From positions 1,056,001 through 1,120,000 of the forward strand of contig CAWIKF010000002.1 in the NCBI GenBank assembly GCA_963836755.1: a stretch of 64,000 bases of DNA. Reading direction: 5' to 3'. Of this stretch, positions 7,182 to 25,183 are shown one piece after another (the stretch's first letter is position 1; each line of letters opens with the position of its first letter). The notes under the pieces are model-generated. The model worked only from the letters and a program-made list of their open reading frames with translations, was not told where the DNA came from and did no database searches. Position numbers and translations under genes: made by a program. This DNA comes from an uncultured Verrucomicrobiae bacterium (GTDB lineage: Bacteria; Verrucomicrobiota; Verrucomicrobiia; Chthoniobacterales; Chthoniobacteraceae).

Positions 7182-9671
7182 TTAGGCAGCGGCTTTGGCG
7201 GGAGCCGGCTTTGCCGGTTTCTTTTCACGCGCAGCAAATTCCCATCCGATTTTTCCCTTCGCGTCGAGGGTCAGGTGGGCCGAGAAGCTTTTGCCTTTTC
7301 CTTTTTTCGAGACGAAGCCGTTGATGAGATCGGTCTTGCCAGTGGTGAGCAGTTTTTGGATTTGCGCGGTCGGAAGTTGTTTTTGAAGGATGACTTTGCC
7401 AATGCGGAGGTCGCATGTCTTCGCTTCGGCTGCGGCGTTTTCGCAGATGAACGCGCTGTCAGTCTCGAAGACGGTTCCTTTTTTGCAGACGGGGCAGGGG
7501 GCGATCGGCGTGGCGCCGGTGAGGTCGACAGCTTGTTTCGTGTCGCCGTTGTCAAAGTCGAACTGCGGTTTGAAGTCTTCACCGAGCTTAATGATGGCGC
7601 TGAATGCGCGGCCCATCTTGCTGCGGAAACCATCGAGCGGGCCGACTTTGCCCTCAGTGAGAAGGGTGCGGATTTCCTCCGGCTCGAACTCGCGGCCCGC
7701 CATGCTTTTCCAGATGCGGAGCGCGCAGCCGGCGCAGGTGTAGGTGCGGTAGTCTTCCTTAAACGGGCCGCCGCCGCACTTCGGGCATTTGATGTCGAGA
7801 GTGAGGAACTCCCCTTCGATCGGCTTTTCGCCGAAGGCTTTGACTTTCTCGACGATGTCGCTGGTGAGGCCGCGGATCTCGCGCATGAAGAGGTCGCGCG
7901 AAAGTTCGCCACGCTCCATTTGCTTGAGCTTGAATTCCCATTCGCCCGTCATCTCCGGCTTGCAAAGCGTCTCCGCGCGGAGGTTGCGCAGCAGCGTGAT
8001 GAGTGAAATGCCTTTCGCCGTGGCGATGAGCTCCCGGCCTTTGCGCTCGGCGTAACCCTCAAAGATGAGGCCCTCGATGATCGATGCGCGCGTGGCCGGC
8101 GTGCCGAGGCCTTTTTCGCGCATCGCTTCGCGCAATTCCTCGTCCTCGACAAATTTGCCCGCGCCTTCCATCGCGGAGAGCAGCGTCGCGTCATTGAATC
8201 GCGCGGCGGGTTTCGTCTCGCTTTCCTTGATTTCAATGGCCTCGACTTTCGCGATTTCTCCGGCGGTGATCGGCACGAGCGCTTTGTCGGACTCGGCTTC
8301 CGTCTCGGATTGGCGACCGTAAACTTCAAGCCAGCCGGGCTTCACCACGATCTTGCCGTCCGTCTTAAACTTCTCGCCGGCGACCGTGGTGATGCGCGTG
8401 GTCAGCTCAAATTCCGCCGCAGGAAAAAATACCGCGATGAAACGCCGCGCGACCATGTCGTAAACTTTGGCGTGAATCTCATCGAGGGACTTCGCGTCGG
8501 CGCCGGTCGGAACGATGGCAAAGTGGTCGCTGATTTTCGCGTTGTTAAAGATGCGTTTGTTCGGATGCACCCAGCCGTTGTTTAACGCTTTGCTGGCGTG
8601 GTTCGCGAGGCTCGCGTCGCCGAAACTGCCGAGCACGTTTTTCGCGGTGCCGATGTAATCTTCTGGCAGGTAACGCGAATCGGTGCGCGGATAAGTCAGG
8701 ACTTTGTAACGCTCGTAAAGCGCCTGCGCGATCTGCAGCGTGCGGCGCGCCGAGAGCCCGAAGCGCGAATTCGCCTCGCGCTGCAGCGTCGTCAAATCGT
8801 AAAGCTGCGGCGCAATTTGAGTCTGCGGCTTTTTCTCCTCGGTGATCGCGCCCGTCTGGCCGTCGCAGTTTGCCTTGATTTCATCAGCCTTCGCGCGATC
8901 CCAGATCCGTTCCGCGCGGGCATCTTCGTCCGCGCCTTTTTTAAAAGTTTCGTCGAACCAGCGGCCGCGATAGCTGCCGGCATCGACGCCGAAATCACCG
9001 AAGACCTCGAAATAAGTGCGCGCCTGAAACGCGCGGATTTTTTCCTCGCGCTCAACGAGAATTGCGAGCGTCGGCGTCTGCACGCGGCCCGCGGTCGTCT
9101 TTTGAAAACCGCCTACCTGTCGCGAGTTGAAAGCCGTGAGCGCGCGCGTAGAGTTGATGCCGACGAGCCAGTCGCTCTCCGAGCGCGACACGGCCGCGTC
9201 GGCGAGCGGCTGCATTTCCGCATCGCTCCGCAAACGCCCAAACGCGTCGCGGATTGATTGCGCCGTCATCGATTGCAGCCAAAGTCGGGCGATCGGTTTT
9301 TTCGTGCCGGTGAGTTTGACGAGGTTACGAAAAATCAACTCGCCCTCGCGTCCGGCGTCGCACGCATTGATGAGCGTCTCCACATCCTTGCGCGCGATGA
9401 GCCGTTTCAAAACTTTGTAACGCACCTCGGTTTTGTCGATCGGCTTCAAGTCAAACTCGCTCGGCAGCACCGGCAGATTTTCGAGATTCCACTTCCCGCG
9501 CTTCACCTCGACACCCTCCGGCGCGCAAAGCTCGACGAGATGGCCGATGGCCGACGAGATCACGTAGCGGTCGTTTTCGAACCAGTCGCTCTGCTTCTCA
9601 AACTTCCCGAGCACGCGCGCCAGGTCGGCCGCGACGCTCGGTTTTTCCGCGATGATCAAGGCTTTGCCCAT
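7182..9671 (-). CDS. topB: DNA topoisomerase III (type IA)
   Basis: IIAEKPSVA, NACDAGREGELIF, GRVQTPTL, TYPRTDS (catalytic Tyr), GLGTPATRA; C-terminal Zn ribbons and GFRSKMGR/GFVSKKGK repeats. Confidence 0.95.
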   Translation of the reverse strand: MGKALIIAEKPSVAADLARVLGKFEKQSDWFENDRYVISSAIGHLVELCAPEGVEVKRGKWNLENLPVLPSEFDLKPIDKTEVRYKVLKRLIARKDVETLINACDAGREGELIFRNLVKLTGTKKPIARLWLQSMTAQSIRDAFGRLRSDAEMQPLADAAVSRSESDWLVGINSTRALTAFNSRQVGGFQKTTAGRVQTPTLAILVEREEKIRAFQARTYFEVFGDFGVDAGSYRGRWFDETFKKGADEDARAERIWDRAKADEIKANCDGQTGAITEEKKPQTQIAPQLYDLTTLQREANSRFGLSARRTLQIAQALYERYKVLTYPRTDSRYLPEDYIGTAKNVLGSFGDASLANHASKALNNGWVHPNKRIFNNAKISDHFAIVPTGADAKSLDEIHAKVYDMVARRFIAVFFPAAEFELTTRITTVAGEKFKTDGKIVVKPGWLEVYGRQSETEAESDKALVPITAGEIAKVEAIEIKESETKPAARFNDATLLSAMEGAGKFVEDEELREAMREKGLGTPATRASIIEGLIFEGYAERKGRELIATAKGISLITLLRNLRAETLCKPEMTGEWEFKLKQMERGELSRDLFMREIRGLTSDIVEKVKAFGEKPIEGEFLTLDIKCPKCGGGPFKEDYRTYTCAGCALRIWKSMAGREFEPEEIRTLLTEGKVGPLDGFRSKMGRAFSAIIKLGEDFKPQFDFDNGDTKQAVDLTGATPIAPCPVCKKGTVFETDSAFICENAAAEAKTCDLRIGKVILQKQLPTAQIQKLLTTGKTDLINGFVSKKGKGKSFSAHLTLDAKGKIGWEFAAREKKPAKPAPAKAAA

Positions 9672-10762
9672 TAGTTTAATTTCACGAAATGCTGGCCGGG
9701 CAGTTGTTTAACAAGGCGTTTCATTTCGAGGGCGAGCAAGGTAGAAGACACTTTCCCGGATGGCAAACTGGTTTTTGCAATGATCGCATCGATCGGCGTC
9801 TCCGCCTCGTCCAGCGCAGCATAAACGGCCTGCTCGTCCCCCTGCAGGGAAGTGGCGCGCGCGGAAGGCCGCGGCTGCGGAGACTCATGAAAAAGCACGT
9901 GCATCTCGTCGAGAATGTCGCCCGCGCTCATCACGAGTTTCGCGCCTTGCTGGATCAGCCGGTTGGAGCCCGCCGCGCTCGGCCGGTCGATCTGTCCGGG
10001 CACCGCATAAACACTGCGCCCGCAGTCGATGGCTTGCGACGCGGTAATGAGCGCGCCGCTGTTCAGTCCCGCCTCGACCACGAGCACGCCAGAGCCCCAG
10101 CCCGCCACGATGCGGTTGCGCATTGGAAAAGTTTGCACGTCCGCTTTCACGTCCATGGAAAATTCCGTCACGACCGCGCCCGATTCTGCGATTTTTTCCG
10201 CGAGCGGGATGTTTTCGGCTGGATAAATCTTGTTTAAACCAGAGCCAAGCACCGAAATCGTTCGCCCCTTCGCCGCGAGCGCGCCTTGATGAGCCGCGGT
10301 GTCGATGCCGCGCGCAAGTCCGCTCACCACGCTGACGCCGGCGTAAGCGAGCTGATACGAAAGTTTTTTCGCCGACTCCGTTCCGTAATGGCTCGCTTGT
10401 CGCGATCCGACGACGCCGATGGCATGTTCCGGTTGTTCTAACAAGCGCCCCCACACGTAAAGCACGATCGGTGCGCTGTGGATTTCTCGCAGCAGCGGCG
10501 GGTAATCGCGCGACTCCTGCGTCACGACATGCGCGCCGACCTTCTCAATTCGCGCCAGTTCCGCCGCTAGATCCACCTGCTCTTCCCACTTTGCAATCGT
10601 CGCCGCGACTTCTGGCCCGATGCCAGCCACGGCGCGCAAATCAGCCGGCTTTGCCTGCAAAATCTGCTGCGGCTTTTGAAAGACCTCGAGCAATTTGCGC
10701 AGCCGCACCGGTCCCATTCCCGGGATCATGTTCAGTGCGATGCACGCCTCCGTCTCCGTCAT
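9671..10762 (-). CDS. dprA: DNA processing protein DprA (Smf)
   Basis: VVGSR, VSGLARGIDTAAHQGAL, FPMRNRIVAG, SGALITA, GSNRLIQQGA, C-terminal winged helix. Confidence 0.97.
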   Translation of the reverse strand: MTETEACIALNMIPGMGPVRLRKLLEVFQKPQQILQAKPADLRAVAGIGPEVAATIAKWEEQVDLAAELARIEKVGAHVVTQESRDYPPLLREIHSAPIVLYVWGRLLEQPEHAIGVVGSRQASHYGTESAKKLSYQLAYAGVSVVSGLARGIDTAAHQGALAAKGRTISVLGSGLNKIYPAENIPLAEKIAESGAVVTEFSMDVKADVQTFPMRNRIVAGWGSGVLVVEAGLNSGALITASQAIDCGRSVYAVPGQIDRPSAAGSNRLIQQGAKLVMSAGDILDEMHVLFHESPQPRPSARATSLQGDEQAVYAALDEAETPIDAIIAKTSLPSGKVSSTLLALEMKRLVKQLPGQHFVKLN

Positions 10763-10803: not shown

Positions 10804-10880
10804 TGGTCGGGCTGGCGGGATTCGAACCCGCGGCCTCCTGCACCCGAGGCAGGCGCTCTACCAAGCTGAGCCACAGCCCG
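10804..10880 (-). tRNA. tRNA-Pro (anticodon CGG), CCA encoded
   Basis: Reverse complement CGGGCTGTGGCTCAGCTTGGTAGAGCGCCTGCCTCGGGTGCAGGAGGCCGCGGGTTCGAATCCCGCCAGCCCGACCA: 7-bp acceptor stem, CCTGC/GCAGG anticodon stem with CTCGGGT loop, TTCGAAT T-loop. Confidence 0.97.
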
Positions 10881-10941
10881 AATTTGTGAGCGAGCAAACT
10901 AACACCGCAGCCGGGCCGGTCAACTCAATTGGAACGGCCAC

Positions 10942-13900
10942 TCAAGCCGCCGAATCGCCGTTGCCTGCCAGCCGCGCGATTTGCTCTTTTTGCGCGGCGA
11001 GTTCTTTTTGCAATTGCTCCATCGCCTGATCGCGCTCGCGCATCAACGCATTAAAATTTTCGCCGACCGCGTGGAGCTCGAGCTTGCTTTCGCGTTTCAC
11101 GGTTGCAATTTGCTCCTTCAATTCCGACACACGCTGGCGCGCGGCGGCGAGCTCTTCCTGAGCGACGCGCGCCTTCTCGGCCTCGGAATTTTTTTCCGCG
11201 AGAAGCTGCTCCCGCACGCGCGTCAAATTCTCGATCTCACGCTGCTTTTCAGAGATGGCCTGCGAAACTTTTTTCGCATCATCCTTGCCGCGACTGACTT
11301 TGTCGAGCTGCACCCGCAGGTCGCCGAGCTCCTGAATGTAAGCCTGCTTCGCGTCATCGAGCTTGTCGTAGTGAAGTTGTTTTTGCTGCGCCAACTCTGC
11401 CGTCACCGCACGATGTTTCGCGTCGAGTTCATCGCGCTGCGCAGACAGCGTCGAAATTTGCCCGCCGTGCTTTGATTCCATCTCCGCAAGCAGACGTTCG
11501 TGTTCCGCGTGCGCCTTTGCGGCGGAGGCGAGCGCGGTTTCTCTTTCGCGCGTCGCCTGCTGGCTCGCGGCCTGCAGCGCTTCCGCGCGTTTTTTGAAAT
11601 CTTCGTTCAACGCCGCGATTTGCTGCCGGTGATTCTCGCCAAGCGCCGCGATTTGCGCAGTGAGCTGCTCGCGCTCCTGCGTGAGGCGCGCCTGCTCGGC
11701 AGCGGCAGATTCGCGTTCCGAATCCAAAGACGAAATGCGCGCTTTTTGTTCGTCGGCTGTCCGCTGCAATTCCGCGAGCGCCACTTCCCGCTCGCGCGAT
11801 GCCGCGTTGATCTCTTCCAGTGCCTTTGCCTTGTTTTGCAATTCCGTTTCGAGCGCGGCGATGCGCGCTTTGTGACCGCTGTCAGTCTGCGACAATTGTG
11901 CAGCGATGCGATCGCGCTCCGTTGTCAGAGCCTTTTCGGCATCGGCAGCGTCCTCGCGCAATTTTTCCAGCGCAGCCTCCGCCTCCTGCTTCTCGCGCGC
12001 CGTTTGGCCACGGCTTTCGCGCAGGGCTGCGAGCTGCTTTTCATAATCCTCGCGCAAATTTTCGATCTGCTGCCGTTGCGAATTTTCGATCTGCACGATT
12101 CGCAGAGTGAGCTGGTCGCGGTGCGCCGCGAGCTCTTCCACGCGCTCATCGAATTCTGCATTGAGCGTCGTGATCCGCTTTTCCGCAGCGTCGCGCGTGG
12201 CGTCAATTTCCGCCAACGCCGCAGCTCGTTCTTCAAAAACAGCGTAGAGCTGCTTGCCAAGCGCGTCGGCCTGCTCTTTCGATTCCTTGCGCAGCTCGCG
12301 CAGTTGCCGCAAAGTTTTGTCGCGGTCGGCCGCCGCGGCATCGCGTTCCTTTGCGAAAATCTCCGCCTGCGCGCCATGATCGCGGCGCACCTCGGCGAGC
12401 TCGCTCTGCAATCGCTCGCGCAGCGCCTCGAGGTCGCGATTCGCATTTGCAATGGCCTCGTCTTTCGCGAGCACGATCGCCTCGCGTTCCTGCTGCAGAG
12501 CCACCGCGCGCTTCGCATGCTCCTCGGCGGCGGCGTCGATTTGTTTCGCAAATTGCTCGCGTGCCTCGGCCAGTTGCGCGGTTGATTCCTCGACCGCCTG
12601 CGCCAGCGCTTCGCGCTCTTGCGTCAAAGTTGCGAGCCGCTCGTTCATTGCCCGCGCCGTCTGCTCGATTTGCTCGCGCTGCATCGTCGCTTCCGCGAGC
12701 GCGCGTTGATGGCCTTCGCTTAAGGCATGCAACTGCTCTTGATGATCAGCGGCCGACTCGGTCAAACGCGCCTTTGCATGTTCCAGCTCGCGTTCCGTTT
12801 TGTTTAACGCGTCGTTTTTCTCGTCGCGCTCGTGCTGAAGTGCGATTGCCCGTTTCGCATGTTCCTCCGCGGCAGTTTCGAGCTGCTTTTGAAATTCTGC
12901 AGCAGTCGCGGCGAGCTTCGTCAGCGCTTCATCGCGAGCCTGCGTGAGTGCCTCCCGTTCCTCTTCCAGAGCGGTTCTCCGATGATTCGACTCGTCCGCG
13001 GCTTTCGCGATTTCTTCACGCTGCGCCTCGGCGTCCAGCAACGCGCGCCGATGAATTTCGCCGATCGACTTCAGCTGTTCCTGATGCTCTTTCTCAGCCT
13101 GCTCGCGCGCATTTTGGATCGCAGCGCGCTCTTCTTCAACCGCGTGCAACTTTTGCTCCAACTCAGAAATGTGCCGCGTCCGCGCCTCGGTGCTCGCCGC
13201 CATTTCCGTGCGAGTTTCCTCGAGATCTCGCGCAAACTGATCGCGCTGATGGCGCAATCCTGACACCTCGGCTTCGTGCTCAACTTTCGCCACCGCGAAT
13301 TGCTCCGTGCGCTCTTTCGCCTGTGCGAGTTCCGCCTGAAGCTGGTCGCGATCGGATTGCAGCGCGCCGCGTTGCGCATCGAGCGCGGCGATTTGTTTTT
13401 CGAGGTCCGCGCGCAAAGTTTGCGTCCCTTGCTCGAGTCGCGAGGTCTCCGCCGCGAGGTGCGCCGCAGTTTCATCGCGCTCGCGGATGACGCCGTGAAG
13501 CTGCTGCGTCAATTCCTCGACCTGCATCTTGTAATCGCGCCGGATTCGCGCGAGCTCGCCCGTGATTTTTTCGTTTTCCTTCCGAGCCTGCGAAAGTTGG
13601 TGATCGTGCGCAACCCGCGCCGTTGCTAGCTCCGCGGCGATTTCGTCGTGACGCGCACGCGCGGCGGCGTCCAGACTTTTTTGATTCTCGGCAGCTTCCT
13701 TGAGCTGTTCCAAAAGTGCCTCGCGTTCGTGCAACGCTGCGTCGCGCTGGCCTGCGACGGCGTCGAAACGGTGCATTTCCTCGTCGCGGACGGTCTGCAA
13801 TTCGGCGGCAGCCGCGGCGCGAACGCCGGCGATCGCCTCTTCTAATTCCTTTTGATGCTGCTCGCGCGCCAGCGCCATCGCCCCGTTGAGACGATGGTTT

Positions 13901-16900
13901 TCCGCAATCATCTGCTCGCGCTGTTTTTCAAAATTCGCGCGCGCTTCGGCGAGCTCCTCGCGAACTTTTTCACGTTCGCGCGAGGTCTCTTCGTGCTGGT
14001 GACGCAGCGCATCAATCTGCTGCTGATTTCCCTCGTTCGCGTGGGCAAACGCAGCCGCGAGCTGGTCTTTCGCCAGCGCGATTTCGTTGCGCTGCTGCTC
14101 GGCAAAATCCGCTTGCTTCCGATGCTCCGCGACGAGCGCCTCGATTTTCGCCTGGTGATTCGCATCCGCCGTTTCGCGCTGCGCCTGATGATCGCGCGCG
14201 AGCTGCTCTAGTTGTTGTTTGCCTTCCTCGCGAATACGCGCGCCCTGCGCGATCGCGTCGTCGCGCTCGTGCTCGAGCGCCATGCGCAATTGCACGAAAT
14301 GCTCCGCCTTTTTTTGCTGCTCCGCATGCAGCGCGGCTAGCTGCTTTTGATGCGCCGCGCCGAGAGCCTCGACCTGTGCCGCATGCTCAGCGCGCGTCGA
14401 TTCGAGCTGCGCTGCGAGTTGCTCGCGCTCGTGATTAAGATCGTTGCGCTGCTGCGTCACTTCGCCAAGCCGCCGCGCGTGATCTGTATTTAGTGCATCG
14501 ACCTGTTTTTGATGCGCATCGATTGCCTGCGCGAGTTTGTAAGACGCCGTGTCGCGCTCGCGCAAAATTTCATCGCGCTGCTTTGTGAGCGCCTCGAGAT
14601 GCTCGCGCGCTTCGCCGGAAATCGTCGCGACATGCGCGGCGTGCTGCTCATTGACCGCCGCGAGCTGCTTCTCGTGCTCGCCGTGCAGATCCACAGTCGC
14701 CTGCTCGTGCTCCTCGCGCATCCGCTGCAACACCGCGAGCAGCGAACTTTTTTCGTGCGCAAACGCGGCGCGCTCCTGCTGAAAAGTTTCTTCCGCACGC
14801 GCCGAATCCGCCTGCAGCGCGAGAATTTGCTCCGCATGTTTTCGATCGAGCGCGGTTTGCTGATTTTTAAAATCCGAAGCGATCGCTGCGATGCGGTTCC
14901 GTTGCTGTTCCTCAGCCGTCGCGAGTTCGGCCGCATGCGCTTCGCGCGCTTGTGCAAACTCCGCCGCGAGCTGCTCTTTCTCGCGCACAATTTCTGCGCG
15001 CTGTTGATTCAGCGCCTCGATTTGCTGCGCATGCGCCGCGTCATTTTGCGCGACGTGCGCAGCATGTTTTTGCCCGAGCGATTCAAGTTCGCCGCGATGA
15101 TTCGCCGACAAAGTTTCCACTTGCTCGTGATGCGACTGGGCGAGCTGCGCCAACTGCTGCCGCGCATTTTCGCCAGCGAGCGCGAGCGCCTGTTTGTGCT
15201 CGTCCTTTGCCTGCGACAATTGCGCGAACGCCATCTCTTTTTCGCGCGTCAGCACAGCGCGCTCCTGCTGGTGTCGCTGCACCAGCATATCGTTCGCTTT
15301 TTGATGATCCTCGTTTAACGCAGCGATTTGCTGGCGGTGCGCGTCAGCGAGATGGTCTAGCTGCTCCGCGCGAAGTTCTTCCGCCGCCTGCAACGCACTT
15401 TTATGCTCATCAATCGCCTGCGCGAGCTGCGCAAAGGCCGATTCTTTTTCCAGCGTGAGCGCGCCGAGTTCCTGTAAATGTTTTTGCGCCAGCGCATCAT
15501 TGTTTTTCTGATGACTCTCGGTGAGCTCCGCGATTTGCTGGTGATGTCTCGCGGCGAGCGCATCGAGCTGTCTCCGCGAACTTTCATCCGCCGCGTGGAG
15601 CGCAGCTTGGTGCTCTTCCTTTGCCTGCGTGAATTGCGCGAGGATTTGCTCGCGTTCGCGCGCCGCGGCCTCGCGCTGTTCGTAATGTTTCTGCGCGAGC
15701 GCCTCGGCCTCGGCCTTGTGCTCTGCGTGCAAAGTTTCCAGTTGCTGCCGATGCTTCAGCTCGACGCCTTCCAGCTGCAGCCGCGCTTTTTCCTGCTCGG
15801 CGGCGAGCGCTTTTTTGTGATCCTCTTTTGCGAGCATCAGCTTTCCAAAAGCGATGTCCTTTTCACGGCCGAGCGCCTCGCGCTGTTCCTGGAATTTCTG
15901 CGTCAGGACTTCGATTTGTTTTTTCTGGTCGGCTAAAAGCGCCTCGATCTGGCGCTTGTGCGCCTGCGCCAAAGCTTCGATCTGCTGGCGCGTTTTTTCC
16001 TGCGCATCGGCCAGCGCTTTTTGATGATCGGAGCGCGCCTGCGCGAGCTCGCGAAGCACCTGCTCTTTTTCGCGGGCGACCGCTTCGCGCTGAACTTTGG
16101 CGGCATCGAGCTGGCGCTGATGCTCGGTGCGCAGCAGATCAAACTCGCGTTTGTGCGCGATGCCGAGCGCATCCATTTTTTCGTGATGCGATTGGCCGAG
16201 CACGTCGAGCTGGCGGCGCGTTTCGACGGCGGCAGCGTCGAGCGCTTTTTTGTGATCCTCCCGCGTCTGCGCGAGTTCGGCGATCACCTGCGCTTTTTCC
16301 TGCACGACAAATTCGCGCTGCTGATTGAGTTGAGCGGCCGCTTTTTCATGCTCCGCGCGCAACGCATTCAGCTCGGCATCATGATTCTGTGCGAGCGCGG
16401 CGACTTGCTTTTTGTGATCGTCGCCGAGGATTTCGATCTGCCGGTGATGATCGTTGCGGACCGTCGCGAATTGTTTTTTGTGCGCTTCCTCGAGCGCGAT
16501 TAATTGCGCGGCGAGTTGTTCGCGTTCGGCAATGATCTGGTCGCGCTGGTTGTCGAGCGATTCGACATGCTTGCGATGATCGGCGTTGAGGAGCTCGAGT
16601 TGTTTTTGATGCGATTCGAGCGCCTGCGAAAGTTGGAACGAAAGCGAATCGCGCTCGCCGATCGCCGTGTCGCGCTGGTCGCTCAACCCGTTAACGCGTT
16701 GCTGGTGCTCCAGTGTCAGCGCCTCGACTTTTTGCCGATGCGATTCATTGAGCGAATCGACGAAACGCTTGTGGTCGTCGCGCGCCTGCGCGAGCTCCGC
16801 GGTCGTCGCATCGCGCTGGCGGATGACCTCGTCGCGCTGCGCGTGGAGCGCGGTGGAGCGCTTGTTGTAATCCTCATCGAGCGCCGCGACGTGCTTGCGA

Positions 16901-18960
16901 TGGTCGGCCGCGAGCGACTCGATTTGCTTTTGATGATCGCGCTCAGCCTCGACCAATTCCGCCGCGAGCGCCTCGCGTTCGCGATTCACATCGTCGCGCA
17001 ATTGATTGAGCGAAAGAATTTCCTTTTGATGATCCGCGCGCACTGCGCCGAGCTGCTTTGCAAAACCGGCATTCAGCGTCTCGACGGCTTTTTTGTGCTC
17101 ATCGCGCGCCTGGCGCAATTGCGTGTTTGCGATGTCACGCTCGCGGCCGAGCTCGTCGCGCTGTTGCGTGAGCTGCTCGAATTGTTTTTTGTGCTGGTCG
17201 CGCGTTTGCGCCAGCGTTTGCGTGAGATTATCGCGCTCTTTTGAAAGGGCGTCGCGCTGCTGCAAAATCGAGTCGATCGATTTTTTATGATCCTGCGCGA
17301 GCGCGTCGAGCTGCCGCTTGTAATCGGCCGTCAAATTCCGCACCTGCGCCGCGTGATCCTCGCGCGCCTGAGCGAGATGGCCGTTCACCTGATCGCGCTC
17401 CTGTAGCGCCTGCGCGCGCTCGTGCATGAAAGTATCGACGCGCTTTTTGTGGTCCTGCCGCAGCGCCTCGATCTGCTTTGTGTGTTCGGTGGAAAGCGAC
17501 GCGAGCTGCTTACTATAATCCTCGCTCAGCGCCTCGATCTGCTTTTTGTGCGTCTGCCGCAGCGCGTCGGTCTGCTTTTTGTATTCGGACTTTGACTGCG
17601 CGAGCTCCGAGGTCACCGCGTCGCGCTCGCGAACGGCGTTGTCGCGTTCCCAAGTGAACGCCTTGAGATTTTTCTTTTGGTCCTCGAGCGCCTTCGTAAG
17701 CTGCCCGAGCGCGCCATCCTTGCCCGTGACCACGGCCTCGCTGCGATGCGAGAGCGACTCGATTTCCTTGAGATGCGCGGCTTTGATTTGATTGAGCTGA
17801 TCGATCAATTCCTCGCGCTGCTTTGCGACCGCATTGCGCTCAAACGTGACGTTTTCCTGCTGCGCACGGAGCTGGTCGATCTCCTGCCGCAACTGCGCCA
17901 GCGCCTCGTCCTTTTCCTTGATGACCGCATCTTTTTCGCGCGAAAGTCCTTCGAGACGCGCGCGCTGCGCATCGGCATCCGAGTCGTCGCCGGTTGCGAC
18001 AAAAGTTTCACTCTGCTCACGTTTCAAATTGGCGAGCTGCGTGGCGATTTCATCGCGCTGGCGGAACGCCGCATCGCGCTCCTTGCTCAGCGAATCGATC
18101 TGCGCCGTCGCCTCGATCAACTTCTTCGAGAGATCGTCCTTCGCGCGCGCCGCCGCTTCGCGCGAGGTCTTGTCGAGCTGCAACGCCATCATCCGCTCGC
18201 GCACAGATTTCGAGCGCTCGATCGTTTTTTGATCCGGTAAATTTTGAAAAACTTCCGTCAACGGCAGCGGCACGCGGCGCGCTTCATCTACTGGGAAAAA
18301 GTTCCGAAAATCCTCCGGCAGCGCCGCCGTCAAATCCGCGAGCGCGATCTCCACCTTCCCCGTTGCGAGCTGTGGCTCCACGAGCTCGAGCGGCAGCGTC
18401 ACACGCAAATCTTCCGGCACCGCGCGCGTCACATTTTTCCGCAAATCCTCCGGCAGCCCCGCAATGATCGCGCTGAGGCTGAGATGAATTTCGCCGCGCG
18501 ACGGCACATCGAGACCGCCGTTCGTCTCGGCAAAAAACGGCATGTGCCCGCTCAAGATCGCCGCGGGTCCGGTCGCCTGGATCGTGGGCCGGCGCGGCGG
18601 AAACATTTCCGCATCGAGCGGAATGCCGTAGCGAAGATCGCCGCGATTGCGCGTGTCGGTTTTGCGCGTGGAGCCGGAGATTTGACCGACCACTTTTTGC
18701 CACGGGAAAAGCACGTCGATGTCTTCCTTCCCGCCGAGATCGGCTTGAAAAACATCGGGACAAACCTTCGCGAGACGCGAGAGAGGCATCGTCGTTTTTC
18801 CAGTCGCGATATCGCCGGCGAGCTCGCTGACTTTGAAAGAAACTTTCTGCTTCAGATCGTGCGGCCCGGGTTTCAGATAAGCCGGCGGCACCCGCTGCAA
18901 AACGTCGCCCAAGTCTAAAACGATTTCTTTTTCCGGGGGTGCGATTTCGTGATTGCCCAT
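10942..18960 (-). CDS. Giant (2672 aa) coiled-coil protein with duplicated N-terminal globular domain; function unknown
   Basis: Uninterrupted ORF; no Pro or Cys seen after residue 242; rich in A/E/Q/R/L/K/H with 11- and 7-residue periodicity; no signal peptide, TM helix or Walker motif. Confidence 0.93.
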   Translation of the reverse strand: MGNHEIAPPEKEIVLDLGDVLQRVPPAYLKPGPHDLKQKVSFKVSELAGDIATGKTTMPLSRLAKVCPDVFQADLGGKEDIDVLFPWQKVVGQISGSTRKTDTRNRGDLRYGIPLDAEMFPPRRPTIQATGPAAILSGHMPFFAETNGGLDVPSRGEIHLSLSAIIAGLPEDLRKNVTRAVPEDLRVTLPLELVEPQLATGKVEIALADLTAALPEDFRNFFPVDEARRVPLPLTEVFQNLPDQKTIERSKSVRERMMALQLDKTSREAAARAKDDLSKKLIEATAQIDSLSKERDAAFRQRDEIATQLANLKREQSETFVATGDDSDADAQRARLEGLSREKDAVIKEKDEALAQLRQEIDQLRAQQENVTFERNAVAKQREELIDQLNQIKAAHLKEIESLSHRSEAVVTGKDGALGQLTKALEDQKKNLKAFTWERDNAVRERDAVTSELAQSKSEYKKQTDALRQTHKKQIEALSEDYSKQLASLSTEHTKQIEALRQDHKKRVDTFMHERAQALQERDQVNGHLAQAREDHAAQVRNLTADYKRQLDALAQDHKKSIDSILQQRDALSKERDNLTQTLAQTRDQHKKQFEQLTQQRDELGRERDIANTQLRQARDEHKKAVETLNAGFAKQLGAVRADHQKEILSLNQLRDDVNREREALAAELVEAERDHQKQIESLAADHRKHVAALDEDYNKRSTALHAQRDEVIRQRDATTAELAQARDDHKRFVDSLNESHRQKVEALTLEHQQRVNGLSDQRDTAIGERDSLSFQLSQALESHQKQLELLNADHRKHVESLDNQRDQIIAEREQLAAQLIALEEAHKKQFATVRNDHHRQIEILGDDHKKQVAALAQNHDAELNALRAEHEKAAAQLNQQREFVVQEKAQVIAELAQTREDHKKALDAAAVETRRQLDVLGQSHHEKMDALGIAHKREFDLLRTEHQRQLDAAKVQREAVAREKEQVLRELAQARSDHQKALADAQEKTRQQIEALAQAHKRQIEALLADQKKQIEVLTQKFQEQREALGREKDIAFGKLMLAKEDHKKALAAEQEKARLQLEGVELKHRQQLETLHAEHKAEAEALAQKHYEQREAAAREREQILAQFTQAKEEHQAALHAADESSRRQLDALAARHHQQIAELTESHQKNNDALAQKHLQELGALTLEKESAFAQLAQAIDEHKSALQAAEELRAEQLDHLADAHRQQIAALNEDHQKANDMLVQRHQQERAVLTREKEMAFAQLSQAKDEHKQALALAGENARQQLAQLAQSHHEQVETLSANHRGELESLGQKHAAHVAQNDAAHAQQIEALNQQRAEIVREKEQLAAEFAQAREAHAAELATAEEQQRNRIAAIASDFKNQQTALDRKHAEQILALQADSARAEETFQQERAAFAHEKSSLLAVLQRMREEHEQATVDLHGEHEKQLAAVNEQHAAHVATISGEAREHLEALTKQRDEILRERDTASYKLAQAIDAHQKQVDALNTDHARRLGEVTQQRNDLNHEREQLAAQLESTRAEHAAQVEALGAAHQKQLAALHAEQQKKAEHFVQLRMALEHERDDAIAQGARIREEGKQQLEQLARDHQAQRETADANHQAKIEALVAEHRKQADFAEQQRNEIALAKDQLAAAFAHANEGNQQQIDALRHQHEETSREREKVREELAEARANFEKQREQMIAENHRLNGAMALAREQHQKELEEAIAGVRAAAAAELQTVRDEEMHRFDAVAGQRDAALHEREALLEQLKEAAENQKSLDAAARARHDEIAAELATARVAHDHQLSQARKENEKITGELARIRRDYKMQVEELTQQLHGVIRERDETAAHLAAETSRLEQGTQTLRADLEKQIAALDAQRGALQSDRDQLQAELAQAKERTEQFAVAKVEHEAEVSGLRHQRDQFARDLEETRTEMAASTEARTRHISELEQKLHAVEEERAAIQNAREQAEKEHQEQLKSIGEIHRRALLDAEAQREEIAKAADESNHRRTALEEEREALTQARDEALTKLAATAAEFQKQLETAAEEHAKRAIALQHERDEKNDALNKTERELEHAKARLTESAADHQEQLHALSEGHQRALAEATMQREQIEQTARAMNERLATLTQEREALAQAVEESTAQLAEAREQFAKQIDAAAEEHAKRAVALQQEREAIVLAKDEAIANANRDLEALRERLQSELAEVRRDHGAQAEIFAKERDAAAADRDKTLRQLRELRKESKEQADALGKQLYAVFEERAAALAEIDATRDAAEKRITTLNAEFDERVEELAAHRDQLTLRIVQIENSQRQQIENLREDYEKQLAALRESRGQTAREKQEAEAALEKLREDAADAEKALTTERDRIAAQLSQTDSGHKARIAALETELQNKAKALEEINAASREREVALAELQRTADEQKARISSLDSERESAAAEQARLTQEREQLTAQIAALGENHRQQIAALNEDFKKRAEALQAASQQATRERETALASAAKAHAEHERLLAEMESKHGGQISTLSAQRDELDAKHRAVTAELAQQKQLHYDKLDDAKQAYIQELGDLRVQLDKVSRGKDDAKKVSQAISEKQREIENLTRVREQLLAEKNSEAEKARVAQEELAAARQRVSELKEQIATVKRESKLELHAVGENFNALMRERDQAMEQLQKELAAQKEQIARLAGNGDSAA
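15199..16026 (-). repeat. Four tandem 207-nt (69-aa) diverged super-repeats within the giant coiled-coil gene
   Basis: His codons at 16026, 15819, 15612, 15405 and 15198 begin homologous units (HQKALADAQEK, HKKALAAEQEK, HQAALHAADES, HKSALQAAEEL); each unit is 5x11+2x7 aa. Confidence 0.85.
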
Positions 18961-19049: not shown

Positions 19050-20105
19050 TCACACCACGTCCGTCGCGGCAAATTCTGACGGCGCTGCTTCTGCACAAAC
19101 TCCATGCCGCTCGCCAATCCGCCCAATCGCCCACCGTGCATGCTCCGCTATCAGCGGCTCGGCATCATCCGCGGCGCGCGCGAGCGCCGGCAGATCGCGA
19201 GGCGTCCCGACATTGCCGAGCGCCACGCAGACATTGCGCAGAAAGCTGCGGCGCTTGATGCGTTTGATCGGCGATTTGCGAAAAAGTTCGCGGAATCCCG
19301 CGTCGTCCAGCGCGAGATAATCCGCGAGCGAAAGCCCGGTCGTCTCACGGCGCGCTGCAAACGCGCCTTCACGCGAAACCTGCGCGAAGCGGTTCCACGG
19401 ACACACCGTTAAGCAATCGTCACAGCCATAAATCCGGTCGCCGATCAGCGGCCGGAACTCCAGCGGGATGCTGCCTTTGAATTCGATCGTGAGATACGAA
19501 ATGCAGCGGCGCGCATCGAGCGAATGCGGCGCGGTGATCGCGCCGGTCGGGCACGCATCGATGCAGCGCGTGCAACTCCCGCAGCGGTCCGGCTGCGGCA
19601 GATCTGCTTCGATGTCCAACGTCGTCAAAATCTCCGCCAGAAAAAACCAGGTGCCCAGCCGCGGGCTGACGAGCATCGTGCTTTTGCCATGCCAGCCGAG
19701 ACCGGCGCGCGCCGCGAAATCGCGTTCCAAAATCGGCCCGGTGTCCACGTAGCATTTCTGCACGCCGCCGTGCGTTTGCAAAAAAGTGTCGAGCTCGCGC
19801 AGCCGGCTCTCGATCAATTCGTGATAATCCTCGCCCCACGCGTAGCGCGCGATTTTGCCATCCGCGCGCGTCGCGTCGCCCTGGAAATAATTCATCGCCA
19901 GCGCGATCACCGACCGCGCGCCCGGCAAAACTTTCTGCGGATCCGTGCGTCGATCTTTGTTCCGCTCCAGCCACGCCATTTCGCCGGCGCGTCCCTCGCC
20001 AAGCCAGTGGTGAAAGGCATCCGCGTGCGGCGGCGCCTCGCACGGCGCGACGCGACACAGGTCAAATCCGAGCGCTTCCGCGCGCGCGATGAGCAGATCT
20101 TTCAC
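19050..20105 (-). CDS. queG: tRNA epoxyqueuosine(34) reductase
   Basis: ARYAWGEDYH, VDTGPILER, CGSCTRCIDACPT, RCISYLTIE, YGCDDCLTVCPWN. Confidence 0.97.
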   Translation of the reverse strand: MKDLLIARAEALGFDLCRVAPCEAPPHADAFHHWLGEGRAGEMAWLERNKDRRTDPQKVLPGARSVIALAMNYFQGDATRADGKIARYAWGEDYHELIESRLRELDTFLQTHGGVQKCYVDTGPILERDFAARAGLGWHGKSTMLVSPRLGTWFFLAEILTTLDIEADLPQPDRCGSCTRCIDACPTGAITAPHSLDARRCISYLTIEFKGSIPLEFRPLIGDRIYGCDDCLTVCPWNRFAQVSREGAFAARRETTGLSLADYLALDDAGFRELFRKSPIKRIKRRSFLRNVCVALGNVGTPRDLPALARAADDAEPLIAEHARWAIGRIGERHGVCAEAAPSEFAATDVV

Positions 20106-20108
20106 GCG

Positions 20109-20642
20109 CTACTTTTCGCACGAAAAAAAGCGCCGCGCCTCCGAAATCACCGCGTCCGCAATTTCGGTGTGCGAGCGCGTGGAAGTGTCGATCGAAAAAT
20201 GCGCCGCGCTTTCATAAAGCGGTCGCCGCGCCGCGAGCAGCGTCACGACCGTCGCGCGCGGATCGGGCGTGTGCAGCAGCGGCCGCTTCGTCGTGCGCGA
20301 CACGCGCTCAAAAATCACCTCTTCGCTCGCCGTGAGCCAGACCACAAAACTCATCGAGCGCAGCAGCGAAACATTTTCCGCGCGCAGCACAATTCCGCCG
20401 CCGGTCGCGATGATTTGGCGCGACTCATCCGCTCGCGAACGAAGCGCGGCCATTTCCGAATCGCGAAAAAAGTCCTCGCCTTCCGCAGCGAAAATTTCAG
20501 CGATTTCAGCTCCCGTCTGCGCGACGACGAGCTGGTCGATGTCGAAAAAATTCCAGTTCAACTTTCGGGCAATGATTCGGCCAATCGAAGATTTGCCAGT
20601 TCCCATGAAACCAATCAGCGCCACATTTTCCCGCGCGCTCAT
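20109..20642 (-). CDS. aroK: Shikimate kinase
   Basis: LIGFMGTGKS P-loop, GEDFFRDSE, ATGGG, RPLL, RRPLY; start placed at the ATG at 20642. Confidence 0.95.
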   Translation of the reverse strand: MSARENVALIGFMGTGKSSIGRIIARKLNWNFFDIDQLVVAQTGAEIAEIFAAEGEDFFRDSEMAALRSRADESRQIIATGGGIVLRAENVSLLRSMSFVVWLTASEEVIFERVSRTTKRPLLHTPDPRATVVTLLAARRPLYESAAHFSIDTSTRSHTEIADAVISEARRFFSCEK

Positions 20643-20888
20643 GATTTTTGAAATGCCCGGGAAACAGCGCGGCGCCAGCATTTCCGGCCATCGCCATGGG
20701 TTGCAAAGTTGTGCACAGATTTTCTTGCGAGCTGAAGCGGGAGTTTTAAAAAACGGGCTTCAGATTTTGGGGCGCCGCATTTTCTTGCGGGAAAAGTTCC
20801 GCGCGGTCAAGCACCGCCTGCACGGAGAAACCGCAGTGCGCGTTTCGCCTTTACACACTCCGCGCCGTCTCCAAAATCCCGCCTCCAG

Positions 20889-21377
20889 ATGAAACCTTCG
20901 CCGCTCGTCGCCGTCGTCATGGGCAGCAAATCCGATTGGGAAACGATGCGCGCCGCCGTGGAAATTTTGGACCAGCTCGGCGTGCCTGGCGAGCACCGCG
21001 TCGTCAGCGCGCATCGCACGCCCGACTTGATGGCGCAGTTCGCAAAAGAGGCAGCGTCGCGTGGAGTCAAAGTGATCATCGCCGGCGCGGGCGGCGCGGC
21101 GCATTTGCCCGGCATGATCGCGGCGCAAACGTGGCTGCCGGTGCTCGGCGTGCCGATCGAGAGCCGCGCGCTCAAAGGGCTCGACTCGCTTTTGTCCATC
21201 GCGCAAATGCCCGGAGGCATCCCCGTCGGCACGCTCGCGATCGGCCCAGCCGGCGCGAAGAATGCCGCGCTGCTTGCCGCGAGCATCCTCGCGCTGACCG
21301 ACGAAAAAGTTCGCGCGTCCTTGCAAAAATTCCGCGAGCGGCAAACAGCCGAATCACTTGCCTCGAAGCTCGAATGA
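20889..21377 (+). CDS. purE: N5-carboxyaminoimidazole ribonucleotide mutase
   Basis: [37 protein letters not shown]. Confidence 0.98.
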
Positions 21378-22522
21378 CGAGCCCGCGCGTTTTTCTGCCC
21401 GGCACCAAAATCGGCGTGATGGGCGGTGGCCAGCTCGGCCGCATGTTTGCCATCGAGGCGCGCAAAATGGGCTACCGCGTTCACACGTTCAGCCCCGGCG
21501 AGGACACCCCGACCGGCCAGCTCGCCGACTGCGAAGTGGCCGGCTCCTACGGCGATGAAGCGGCGGTGAAAAAGTTTGCGCAGGGCATCGATGTGCTCAC
21601 GTTTGAATTCGAAAATATTCCCGCGCGCACCATCGAATGGTGCGCGGAATTTTGCGAAGTGAGGCCATCGGGAAAGATTTTGCACATCGCGCAGAACCGG
21701 CTCCGCGAGAAGGAATTTCTCGATCAAGCAGGGCTGCCGCTGCCCGCGTTCATCGCCGTCGGCAGCGCAGGAGAACTCGCAGCCGCGGTCAACGAAGTCG
21801 GCACAAATGCAGTTTTAAAAACGGCAAGTTTTGGCTACGACGGTAAAGGTCAGCACAAACTTTCACCCGGCGAAGATCTCGCGGCCGCGTGGTCGCCTTT
21901 CGCTCAAACCGGTGCGGTGCTCGAGCAGTTCGTCGATTTTCAAAAAGAAATTTCCGTCCTCGTCGCGCGCGGCGCGGACGGCGCAAAGGTGACGTATCCC
22001 GTCTGCGAAAATGTGCATCGCAACCACATCCTCGACGTGACCGTTGTTCCCGCGAACGTCAGCGACGCGATCGAAAAATCCGCGCGCGAACTCGCGCTCA
22101 CCATCGCCGAAAAACTCGAGCTTGTCGGATTGCTGGCGGTCGAAATGTTTTTACGGCCTGACAACACGTTGCTGATCAACGAACTCGCGCCGCGTCCGCA
22201 CAACTCCGGGCATTTCAGCTTCGACGCGTGCATCACGAGCCAGTTCGAGCAACAACTCCGCGCGGTGTGCGGACTGCCGCTCGGCTCGACCGAATTGCTG
22301 CGGTCGTGCGCGATGGCAAACCTGCTCGGCGAGCTTTGGGAGAAGGGCGAGCCCGATTGGAAAGCCGCGCTTCAAATCCCGGATGTCAAACTTCATCTAT
22401 ACGGAAAAACTGAGCCGCGCGCCGGCAGAAAAATGGGTCATCTAACTGCGTTCGGTGCGAATACGGACGAAGCCGCCCGACGTGTGCGCGCCGCGCGCGA
22501 AGCGTTGACGGAACACCAGTGA
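21374..22522 (+). CDS. purK: N5-carboxyaminoimidazole ribonucleotide synthase
   Basis: ATG overlaps the purE stop (ATGA); [38 protein letters not shown]. Confidence 0.97.
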
Positions 22523-23587
22523 TCACACAACTGCTCCCGGCCGCGGATCCAGCCACCATCGGCCCTGCAGTCAATTTGCTCGCAGCCGGCGAGGTCGTCG
22601 CGCTTCCGACTGAAACGGTTTACGGACTCGCGGCAGACGCGCTGCGGGCCGAAGCGGCCGCCAAAATTTTCGAAGCAAAAGAGCGCCCATTTTTTGACCC
22701 GCTCATCGTTCATTTGCCATCGCGCCACTGGCTTGAAAAAATCGCGACCGTTCCGGAGCGGAGCAAAGTTTTGGTCGATGCGTTGATCGAAAAATTCTGG
22801 CCAGGGCCGCTCACCCTCGTGCTGCCGCGGCAAAAAATTGTGCCCGATCTTGTCACCGCTGGACTCGACACGGTGGCCGTGCGGATGAGCTCGCATCCAG
22901 TTTTTCAAAACGTCATCGAGCGTTTCGGAAAGCCGCTCGCCGCGCCGAGCGCAAATCGCTTTGGGCGGATCAGCCCAACCGCGGCGGGTCATGTTTTCGC
23001 GGAGTTAAACAACCGGATTCCGCTGATCGTTGACGCCGGGACGACGCAGCACGGAATCGAATCGACGATTCTCGCAGTCGAAGGCGGCGAACTGCGCTTG
23101 CTGCGCGCCGGGCCGATCACGCCCGAGGAAATCGGCGGCGTCTGGCAAAGCGTTTGCAAGCGGCAAAAATTTGCGCCGACCGAGAAGGACGTGAATGCCT
23201 TTTTCGAAAAGCTCGGCGTTTCTTTTCGGGCAATGTTGCGCGGCGCGCATGACACCCGGATCGAGGCGCCAGGCCAGTTGCAGAGCCATTACGCGCCGCG
23301 CACACCGCTGCGTTTGCTCGCACTCGGTGCGCACGCGCGGGTTTATGAAAAAGTTCGCGCGGGCTATCTGGCGTGGGAATCGGCGCCAAAAGAAAATTGT
23401 TTTTGCGCCATCGAAATTCTCAGCGAATCCGGAGATTTTCGCGAAGCGGCGGCGACGTTTGTTCGCAAAGCTGCGCAAATTGGACGACGCGAAACTCGAC
23501 GTGATTTTCGCGGATTGCGTGCCGGAGCGCGGGCTGGGCATTGCGATTATGGATCGTTTGCGCAAAGCTGCCGCCCCAAATTCATGA
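22519..23587 (+). CDS. sua5: L-threonylcarbamoyladenylate synthase, Sua5-type (YrdC + SUA5 domain); one apparent +1 frameshift at about 23458-23460
   Basis: PTETVYGL, KERPFFDPLIVH, FWPGPLT, APSANRFG, SHYAP; removing one T restores ATLFAKLRKLD...GLGIAIMDRLRKAA and a stop at 23587. Confidence 0.88.
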
Positions 23588-25183
23588 GCGACTCGGATCG
23601 AAAATTCAGCGCGAAATCCGCCGGCGTCGTCGGCATCGCCGTCATGTGCTCGCGCGTGCTCGGGCTTGTGCGCGAGCTGGTTTTTGCGGCGCTGTTCGGC
23701 GCTGGTTTCAAAATGGACGCGTTCGTCGCCGCGTTTCGCGCGCCAAATTTGCTGCGCGATCTTTTTGCCGAGGGCGCTCTCTCTACCGCGTTTGTGACGA
23801 CTTTTTCAAAAAAAATCGCGACGGAAGGCGACGAGTCTGCGTGGAAGCTGGCGAACAAGGTTGCGACTTTGACGGTGATTTTCATGAGCTTTGTCACGCT
23901 GCTGGGAATCATTTTCGCGCCGCAGCTGATGTTTTTGCTCGCGCACGGATTTGAGGCGGAGCCGGGAAAGTTCCAGCTCGCGGTGCTGCTCACGCGGATC
24001 ATGTTTCCGTTCATCTTGATGGTGTCGCTGTCGGCGCTCGTCATGGGAATGCTGAACGCGAAGCACGTCTTCGGCATGCCCGCGCTGGCGTCGAGTTTCT
24101 TCAATCTCGGCTCGATCGTCGGCGGCGCTGCGCTCGGCTGGCTGATGGATCCGCACTTCGGCACCCGTTCGCTCATCGGGCTGTCGATCGGCACGTTGAT
24201 CGGCGGATTTTTGCAGCTCGTCGTGCAATTTCCGGCGCTGCGCAAAGTGCGTTTTCGTTTTCGTCCGGACTTTGTCTGGCGCGATGAGGGCGTGCGGCAG
24301 GTGCTTTTATTAATGGGTCCCGCGGTCATCGCGGCGAGCGCGGTGCAGGTGAATGTAATGGTCAACGGCAACTTCGCATCGCATCTCGGCAACGGCCCGG
24401 TGAGCTGGCTCAACTACGCGTTTCGGTTGATGCAATTGCCGATTGGGATTTTCGGCGTTGCGCTCGGGACAGTGACGCTGCCGGCGATCTCGCGCAGCGC
24501 TGCGATGGGCGACACGGCGCAGTTGCGCAGCACGCTCGCCCATGCGTTGAAGCTCGCATTTTTGCTGACGATCCCGTGCGCGATCGGGCTGATCTTTTTC
24601 TCCGAACCGATCATCTCGCTCATTTTTCAGCGCGGTCGATTCACTTTTGATTCGACGCTGCAAACGGCGGCGGCATTGAGATTTTACGCCATCGGTCTCG
24701 TCGCCTACGCCGGAATCAAAGTGCTGGCGCCGGCGTTTTACGCGATCGACAAGCGCTACGCTCCGATGCTCGTGAGTTTTTTTTCCATCGCGACGAATTG
24801 GTATTTGAACCAGCTCTTCACCTTCAAACTTGGCTACGGTCATCGCGGTCTCGCGCTCTCGACCGGCTTCGTCGCTTCGATCAATTTCGTGATCCTTTTT
24901 CTGATGATGTCGCATCATGTGAAAGGGCTGGAGGCATTTTCGCTGTTTAAAACGATATTTAAAATCCTGCTGGCCAGCTCATTATTGGCCGCCGTTTGCT
25001 CACTTTCGCGAAAAGTTGCTCTTCGTGAATCTCGCGACGATGCACTTTTTGCCGAAGCTCTTGGCAGTGCCGATGACCATCGGCGTCGCGGGCGTGGTTT
25101 TTTTCGCCGGGGTTTACTTCCTAAAAGTGGACGAAGTGCATGAGCTGAGCACGCTGCTGCGCCGCAGATTTTTGAAACGATGA
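23584..25183 (+). CDS. murJ: Lipid II flippase MurJ (MviN); apparent +1 frameshift at about 25011-25014 near the C-terminus
   Basis: ATG overlaps the corrected sua5 stop; SRVLGLVRE, AFRAPNLLRDLFAEGALSTAFV, YAFRLMQLPIG; removing one A restores a final TM segment ending at an ATGA overlap with gdh. Confidence 0.92.

Follow-up and report, generated by a model that had tools for sequence, protein, structure and literature searches.

Coiled-coil scaffolds of bacteria are known from few model phyla and, to our knowledge, nothing comparable to the protein considered here has been annotated for Verrucomicrobiota. This protein, a giant of 2672 residues with a small head and a very long rod, is encoded on the reverse strand at positions 10942..18960 (2672 codons plus the stop, from the open reading frame (ORF) listing and its translation) of the window, i.e., the whole stretch of 64,000 nucleotides analyzed, which comes from an uncultured Verrucomicrobiae bacterium (hereinafter the source genome, G000). 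Full-text searches of the literature turned up no publication on a protein of this kind. Among the described systems, Scy and FilP of Streptomyces are portrayed in the excerpt of PMC9858780 drawn on here as proteins with an N-terminal DivIVA-like motif, a short head and a long, Ala-rich rod in which hendecads stand in for many heptads and which has almost no supercoil. According to the portion of PMC9811614 used, MglA and MglB control the FrzS and AglZ proteins of Myxococcus xanthus, which serve type IV pili or gliding as polar beacons or scaffolds. HmpF is a coiled-coil regulator of type IV pilus motors encoded near signaling genes, and is restricted to cyanobacteria according to an extract of PMC12288463.

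The giant resembles each of these in part. The initial annotation had likened it to Scy and FilP, which is apt with respect to its short head and very long, hendecad-rich and Ala-rich rod; however, the DivIVA-like motif is absent, the phylum is a different one, and the rod of Scy, at >1000 residues (length as given in the excerpt of PMC9858780), is about half as long. Moreover, the repeat of the giant takes the form of 21 + n × 11 residues, with His rather than Ala at the third core position of the hendecad. With FrzS and AglZ it shares a small N-terminal domain followed by an extended coiled coil, a head family tied to genes for PilB-like, MglA-like and MglB-like proteins and, in two related giants (G015 and G022), a receiver gene directly upstream. 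In contrast to them, its head is not a receiver domain, no homology was detected, its rod is several times longer, and the source genome yielded no MglA/B-like genes with the queries used. HmpF, which we compare by description only, is likewise a lineage-restricted coiled-coil protein with a link to pilus motors. Golgins such as giantin are similar solely in how they work, namely as a long rod with binding sites at both ends serving as a tether or spacer (per extracts of PMC4707255 and PMC5082667); there is no homology, and the giant is bacterial, cytoplasmic and devoid of a membrane anchor.

Our proposal is that the giant serves in the cytoplasm as a tether or scaffold connected with a pilus-motor or polarity module, both its assembly into filaments and its partners being putative. 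This is a tentative reading, to which we assign a probability of roughly 45%. A motor- or polarity-linked tether is preferred over a generic shape-determining filament because the sister branch of its head is tied to a locus coding for a PilB-like ATPase and MglAB-like proteins. The head would dock to the pilus-motor or polarity machinery, or else to a partner that they have in common, and the rod would homo-oligomerize to form a stiff spacer no longer than ~360 nm. A second site might be bound, in complete members of the family, by a C-terminal peptide of the form LPR[VI]RPxxxPPP, in which case the protein would amount to a long tether, scaffold or ruler. The earlier suggestion of a native cell-architecture protein is thus retained insofar as we are dealing with a genuine, native head-plus-rod giant, but the head family favors a motor- or polarity-linked tether over a generic shape filament.

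The giant is a genuine, native and constrained gene. A recount from the translation confirmed the ORF of 2672 residues and its run of 2430 residues (243–2672) without Pro and Cys; the 25 prolines are confined to positions 8–242 and the single cysteine is residue 67. The protein is rich in A (17%), E (12.7%), L (10.5%), Q (10.3%) and R (8.8%), and its 4.4% of H is unusual for a helical rod. At 0.60–0.61, the guanine-plus-cytosine content of the gene matches that of its surroundings (0.55–0.61 over the window), in line with the host-like composition noted before. We searched 61 related genomes, G001 and G002 being relatives from the same genus, and these two encode orthologues of 2703 (L032:10097-18208) and 2470 residues (L033:8571-15983) that start with the same MGN... 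N-terminus. Both are colinear with the window protein, the former being 50% identical to it over 2540 aligned positions and the latter 57% over 2328. The ratio of nonsynonymous to synonymous substitution rates (dN/dS) against these orthologues is ~0.28 overall, 0.25–0.39 in the head and 0.27–0.29 in both halves of the rod, in a comparison where dS is near saturation. Across orthologues, the giants range from 1460 to 2700 residues. The initial annotation had raised the prospect of a mis-assembled repeat expansion; the DNA repeats inside the gene are only 60–82% identical to the reference copy, making a recent or mis-assembled expansion unlikely, and the colinearity with the orthologues over 2328–2540 positions speaks against it as well. 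Among the sequencing runs listed, the locus is represented in one DNA run (X1, contigs of a soil metagenome, with 35% of the sampled words) and in no RNA run. In X1, 28 short contigs match the locus, 21 of them at ≥99%, and together they cover 26 of its 30 bins; we disregarded one contig joint with a 20-letter side.

The rod consists of two parts. The N-terminal part (residues 294–1740; 13741..18081, reverse strand), delineated by motif spacing and periodicity, is built from a 21-residue heptad block with the motif QRDxxxxERD followed by one to five hendecads of the consensus Q-[LIV]-[AE]-A-[LA]-R-E-[DE]-H-[KR]-K. The C-terminal part (residues 1741–2672; 10945..13740, reverse strand) is nearer to heptad periodicity, with a windowed period of 3.51–3.60. 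The spacings between successive QRDxxxxERD motifs include 32, 43, 54 (four times), 69, 76 (three times) and 87 residues, and the autocorrelation of residue identity peaks at lags of 11, 25, 43, 54, 108, 162 and 216. A fast Fourier transform (FFT) scoring the core hydrophobics (LIVMFYW) over the 2427-residue rod gives a peak at 3.599 residues with a power of 6.5 as against a shuffle maximum of 1.4, and only 0.54 at a period of 3.5 and 0.27 at 11/3. This period equals that of the 54-residue spacing distributed over 15 turns (3.60). Local windows vary between 3.45 and 3.65; the highest values (3.56–3.65) come from about residues 410–1730, and those of the C-terminal third lie closer to 3.5. Given the 3.63 residues per turn of an undistorted helix (value from the excerpt of PMC9858780), the supercoiling of such a rod would be expected to be slight and left-handed. 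A continuous helix of 2427 residues would span ~360 nm. The same period is seen in two relatives (3.598 in G002 and 3.602 in G033), and that of G001 is 3.572; the more distant giants combine the elements in other mixtures with periods of 3.51–3.55, and one of them (G024) has a 32-residue repeat with a power of 14. Both arginines of the QRD/ERD motif would fall on core positions. Histidine is strongly concentrated at hendecad position 9, the third core position: in windows whose sole selection criterion was hydrophobic residues at positions 2 and 5 in each of two consecutive units, it occupies this position in 43 of 74 cases (58%) in the window protein and in 49%, 55% and 72% in G001, G002 and G033, respectively, against a background of 4–5%.

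Preceding the rod is a head that, on AlphaFold2 (AF2) models, is predicted to be a tandem pair of a previously undescribed α/β module of ~90 residues. The N-module (residues 8–100; 18661..18939, reverse strand) is a fourfold β-α unit and is joined by a Pro-rich linker (residues 101–151; 18508..18660, reverse strand) to the C-module (residues 152–250; 18211..18507, reverse strand), identified as a diverged copy of the former from the model and alignment. The linker is predicted to be disordered, with a predicted local distance difference test score (pLDDT) of 47–53, and varies in length and sequence (alignment A1). In the two-module model both modules reach a pLDDT of ~94 (90–96 in the C-module) with the same order of four β-α units; the N-module folded alone scores 85. 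Matches to residues 1–260 in related genomes fall into two separable pieces, ~8–100 and 150–250, and the C-module also has separate matches to residues 125–255. The two are regarded as diverged copies of one module because, in a 35-sequence MAFFT alignment that was also the input to the two-module model, stand-alone C-modules of other genomes fall onto the columns of the N-module. We found no convincing structural neighbor for the head models: the best Foldseek E-values were 1.0–1.3 and the best VIA-align Z-scores among 48,161 chains 2.6–2.8, which in itself is no proof of a new fold. Sequence profiles of the head recovered no solved relative, and the sole PDB match of the N-module profile, a designed trefoil-knot protein, had no passing stretch and was set aside as a chance match. 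A Pfam scan of the head alone at E-values up to 10 retrieved neither DivIVA nor Response_reg.

The homologue search seeded with the head, which had been suggested as a check, matched 42 of the 61 related genomes with residues 1–260. A word-index protein search returned only two homologues, one of them labeled as a Roadblock/LC7/MglB-family regulator by its source. Only when 1.84 billion representatives were searched exhaustively with a profile did the family emerge, with 1181 clusters at E ≤ 1e-3, of which 659 reach ≤ 1e-10 and 214 reach ≤ 1e-30. Family representatives among the 150 matches listed are 100–1577 residues long, and they are recognized by the signature LxLGDxLxRIP ... G ... P ... 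FPWQK in one or two module copies, which is also present in the window protein. Of 41 representatives scanned with Pfam, 37 had no match; among the other four, two have a C-terminal Roadblock/LC7 domain and two gave sub-threshold noise. In an even sample of 301 genomes from the phylum, the N-module profile matched five, namely the source genome, three others of its order and one further member of its class; a lead from the ESM Atlas and the record title of one metagenome-assembled genome also place the family in Verrucomicrobiota/Verrucomicrobiae. The head module defines an unannotated family that, judged from this distribution, is almost confined to one order of Verrucomicrobiae. A maximum-likelihood tree of 31 N-modules has two sides, separated with a support of 96/92. 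One is an ATPase-linked branch (10 such rows and one other) and the second unites all 12 giants with eight other rows, the window N-module grouping with those of G001, G002 and G033 at 98/95. On this phylogeny, the giants are the sister paralogues of a protein that belongs to a PilB-like/MglAB-like locus, which is our sole lead on their function and an indirect one.

The source genome has exactly two head genes, the second coding for a 262-residue paralogue with 36% identity. This paralogue lies in an operon-like run on one strand (G000:C2:2151844-2159278, reverse strand; L049:11844-19278), which codes for a DUF7657/7654 protein, a TPR-MshEN protein, a PilB/GspE-type ATPase, the head paralogue, ExbB, ExbD and a 247-residue protein. 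The ATPase scores 657 bits against the cut-off of 675.65 for TIGR02538 and carries an MshEN domain of its own; no PilC gene adjoins it in this run. The genome as a whole encodes four full-length PilB/GspE-like ATPases, six shorter PilT-like T2SSE ATPases and four PilC/GspF genes. An orthologue of the ATPase with 72–92% identity is present in 38 of the 61 relatives, across several families of the order. In all 30 loci that we fetched, TPR-MshEN lies upstream of the ATPase, and in 14 of them a head module follows directly downstream on the same strand (two of the 30 loci end at the ATPase). Three genomes extend this arrangement, with the PilB-like ATPase and head protein being followed by a small Ras/Arf-like GTPase and then a 155-residue Roadblock/LC7 protein (G041, L053:3782-9852; G055, L054:3928-10795; G046, L055:6582-11711). 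The best NCBIfam match of the Roadblock/LC7 protein is MglB (~60 bits, below the cut-off), and in G046 the head protein itself carries a Roadblock/LC7 domain. The ATPase–head–GTPase–Roadblock order is apparently an undescribed pilus-motor/polarity gene set of Verrucomicrobiae.

Two further genomes deserve mention in connection with these loci. In G015 and G022, the giant has a single-domain response regulator directly upstream (L037:6174-6635 and L035:14865-15230, respectively) and an OsmC-like gene directly downstream, a synteny specific to that sub-branch; as only two of 10 giant loci have the response regulator, we did not retain this adjacency as a trait of the family. Separately, the PilB-like ATPase orthologue of G015 (G015:C16:69740-71449, L071) contains one in-frame TAA.

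The ends of the giants also show conservation. The C-terminal LPR[VI]RPxxxPPP, followed by a few residues, is present in seven of the eight other giants for which the C-terminus is available (G001, G002 and five of six more distant ones, with G025 lacking it; the contig of G033 stops before the C-terminus), and it also ends seven long family representatives. It is absent from the window protein. At the other end, the more distant giants begin with a peptide of the MKSFLDRFRRK type, as do 22 of 152 stored family representatives.

Several observations weigh against a tether linked to a pilus motor or polarity module. With regard to the rod, its phase coherence is only partial, the whole-rod FFT power falling far below the expectation for full coherence; its hydrophobic core, which admits Arg and His, is weak; and its oligomeric state, straightness and continuity are read from the sequence alone. 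With regard to the link itself, the giant gene was next to the ATPase in none of the 10 giant loci examined, five of the 20 giant-branch genomes have no ATPase orthologue at E ≤ 1e-150 (including G022, a single contig at 96% completeness), and neither an MglA-like nor a Roadblock gene was found in the source genome with the queries used. Finally, both head-family genes of the source genome are C-terminally shorter than their orthologues in the genus, and the system may be decaying there.

The foremost alternative is that the giant is a generic, self-assembling filament of the intermediate-filament-like kind typified by Scy, FilP and crescentin, which would give the cell its shape or stiffness, with the head being only an assembly or regulatory domain and no tie to a pilus motor. 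The layout of head and rod, together with a hendecad-rich rod containing 17% Ala as in Scy and FilP (as portrayed in the excerpt of PMC9858780), fits this well, as do the separation of the giant gene from the ATPase and the occurrence of a giant in G022, where no ATPase orthologue reaches E ≤ 1e-150. However, neither a DivIVA-like nor any other known filament head is present, and the sister branch of the head is tightly linked to the PilB-like/MglAB-like locus. Additionally, the conserved terminal peptide is suggestive of end-on docking over lateral assembly, and the polar Arg and His residues at the core argue against a very stable bundle. Hence, we consider such a filament unlikely, if still a serious contender.

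A bolder version of the tether linked to a pilus motor or polarity module, which we regard as a speculative long shot, sees in the giants a new kind of cytoskeletal tether. A nearly unsupercoiled rod of 0.2–0.36 μm would connect, via the novel head, a cyclic di-GMP-sensing PilB-type motor or MglAB module to a second site bound by the proline peptide, and the ladder of histidines (one per 11 residues) would permit zippering switched by pH or metals. Irrespective of this, the analysis yields an unannotated domain family of ~1200 clusters whose fold is confidently predicted yet unmatched. The TPR-MshEN/PilB-like ATPase/head-protein gene set, with or without MglA-MglB-like genes, offers a handle on pilus or polarity organization in these bacteria. 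A natural coiled coil of 2400 residues with a period of 3.60 and a His-lined core is of relevance to coiled-coil structure and design. If the tether interpretation is true, the length of the rod could serve as an intracellular ruler.

The lack of the terminal peptide in the window protein is apparently due to truncation. It is colinear with its orthologues from G001 and G002 up to its last residues, beyond which ~75 residues including LPRVRPMxVPPP are missing (alignment A5), and this tail was not found elsewhere in the source genome. Comparison of synteny with G002 places a rearrangement junction at the stop codon and the 61-nucleotide spacer separating it from tRNA-Pro (10881..10944, reverse strand). 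The TPR-gyrA block found 3′ of the giant in G002 lies ~870 kb away in the source genome, and the DNA similarity to G002 for this displaced block begins exactly after the stop codon of the G002 giant. For these two reasons, the 3′ end is taken to coincide with a rearrangement breakpoint, at which the tail of the window protein was probably lost. The X1 contigs leave the bin after the stop codon (10968-11334) uncovered and none of those listed bridges the junction of stop and tRNA, so the shortening of the 3′ end has no independent read confirmation. The 262-residue head paralogue (L049:13748-14536) similarly lacks the linker and C-terminal domain of ~110 residues seen in its orthologues from G001 (422 residues, L061:6973-8241) and G002 (506 residues, L060:6532-8052). 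The copy in the source genome, being without the C-terminal peptide, may act via its head and rod only, or be impaired.

These shortenings raise the alternative that the giant of the source genome is a decaying remnant, its function abolished by the loss of the C-terminal anchor and stop codons not yet accrued. The removal of ~75 C-terminal residues with a conserved motif at a synteny breakpoint, the missing C-terminal domain of the second head gene and the failure of our queries to find MglA/B-like genes in this genome are all compatible with decay. Against it, the 8-kb frame is without a single stop or frameshift, and the dN/dS of ~0.28 extends over the whole length including the C-terminal rod, though it mostly reflects older history. 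On balance, decay seems to us a rather improbable account of the gene.

Another alternative dispenses with the coiled coil and sees the rod as an amphipathic helix coating a surface, akin to the 11-residue repeats of apolipoproteins, perilipins, α-synuclein and LEA proteins. Its period of 3.60, which amounts to a straight hydrophobic stripe suited to a flat surface, its many 11-residue repeats and the MKSFLDRFRRK-type N-terminus of related giants would be in keeping with this. However, on a helical wheel with 100° per residue, position 9 falls between positions 2 and 5 at the center of a stripe only ~100° wide; this stripe (positions 2, 5 and 9) is thus narrow and His-centered, with Lys lying opposite rather than flanking it. 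Moreover, the net charge of the rod is −94 and its 21-residue heptad blocks are regular. A surface-coating role is, on this evidence, strongly doubtful.

Still less probable is a secreted or surface-displayed fibrous, adhesin-like protein, possibly exported by a system of the type II or type IV-pilus kind, for which its fibrous architecture and the link of its family to a GspE/PilB-type ATPase might be invoked. As stated in the initial annotation, the protein has no signal peptide-like segment and no transmembrane-like stretch (the top 19-residue Kyte–Doolittle mean is 0.79); it also lacks an anchor motif and adhesin-type repeats, and the MglA/MglB-like and MshEN neighbors of its paralogues belong to cytoplasmic families.

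We return to the tether linked to a pilus motor or polarity module with respect to its genomic setting. Upstream of the giant are queG (19050-20105) and aroK (20109-20681), and downstream are tRNA-Pro(cgg) (10804-10880), dprA (9671-10762) and the gene for topoisomerase III (7182-9671), all on the reverse strand in the window annotation. The housekeeping context described earlier is correct as a list of neighbors, but it carries no functional signal, the downstream side being a rearrangement junction. The sole neighbor common to the source genome and G002 is queG, upstream of the giant; G001 and G002 carry dprA on contigs other than that of the giant, and the adjacency of giant, dprA and topB is unique to the source genome. 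The tRNA-Pro-dprA-topB neighborhood is hence a recent accident. This leaves negligible room for an SMC/Rad50-like or other DNA-associated protein, which a long coiled coil adjoining DNA-processing genes might bring to mind and which is largely refuted already by the accidental origin of the adjacency, the single Cys, the lack of an ATPase head, hinge, zinc hook or Pfam SMC domain, and a score for the SMC-related ASRP of only 21.6 bits against a cut-off of 300. Where a Walker motif had been reported absent, residue 49 is in fact the site of a Walker-A-like string, but this is a chance match because its Lys is unconserved (K/R/E/N/Q across homologues in alignment A2) and the string lies at a helix-to-strand turn in the model. 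None of the known families named in the initial annotation (SMC, tape measure, methyl-accepting chemotaxis protein) fits. A phage tape measure was rejected as PHROGs returned no families for the protein and the neighbors are aroK, queG, tRNA, dprA and topB, and a methyl-accepting chemotaxis protein was rejected given the lack of a Pfam match and the low maximal hydropathy. With the whole protein, Pfam gave sub-threshold coiled-coil noise only (KIF21A_4th at 23 bits against a cut-off of 33.1), as did NCBIfam, of which the ASRP match is an example, and a PDB sequence search found no relative. A scan for promoters and terminators found none at either end of the gene, and its counts were close to those expected from shuffling.

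Two further ORFs of the window are worth recording. The purK ORF at 20936-22522 (forward strand) has an apparent N-terminal extension of ~150 residues that overlaps a 306-residue ORF without a family match on the opposite strand (20807-21727). Beyond it, an 874-residue ORF at 22519-25143 (forward strand) combines a Sua5/YciO/YrdC (TsaC-like) domain at residues 20–198 with a MurJ flippase at 389–827, and represents either a fusion or two genes without an intervening stop.

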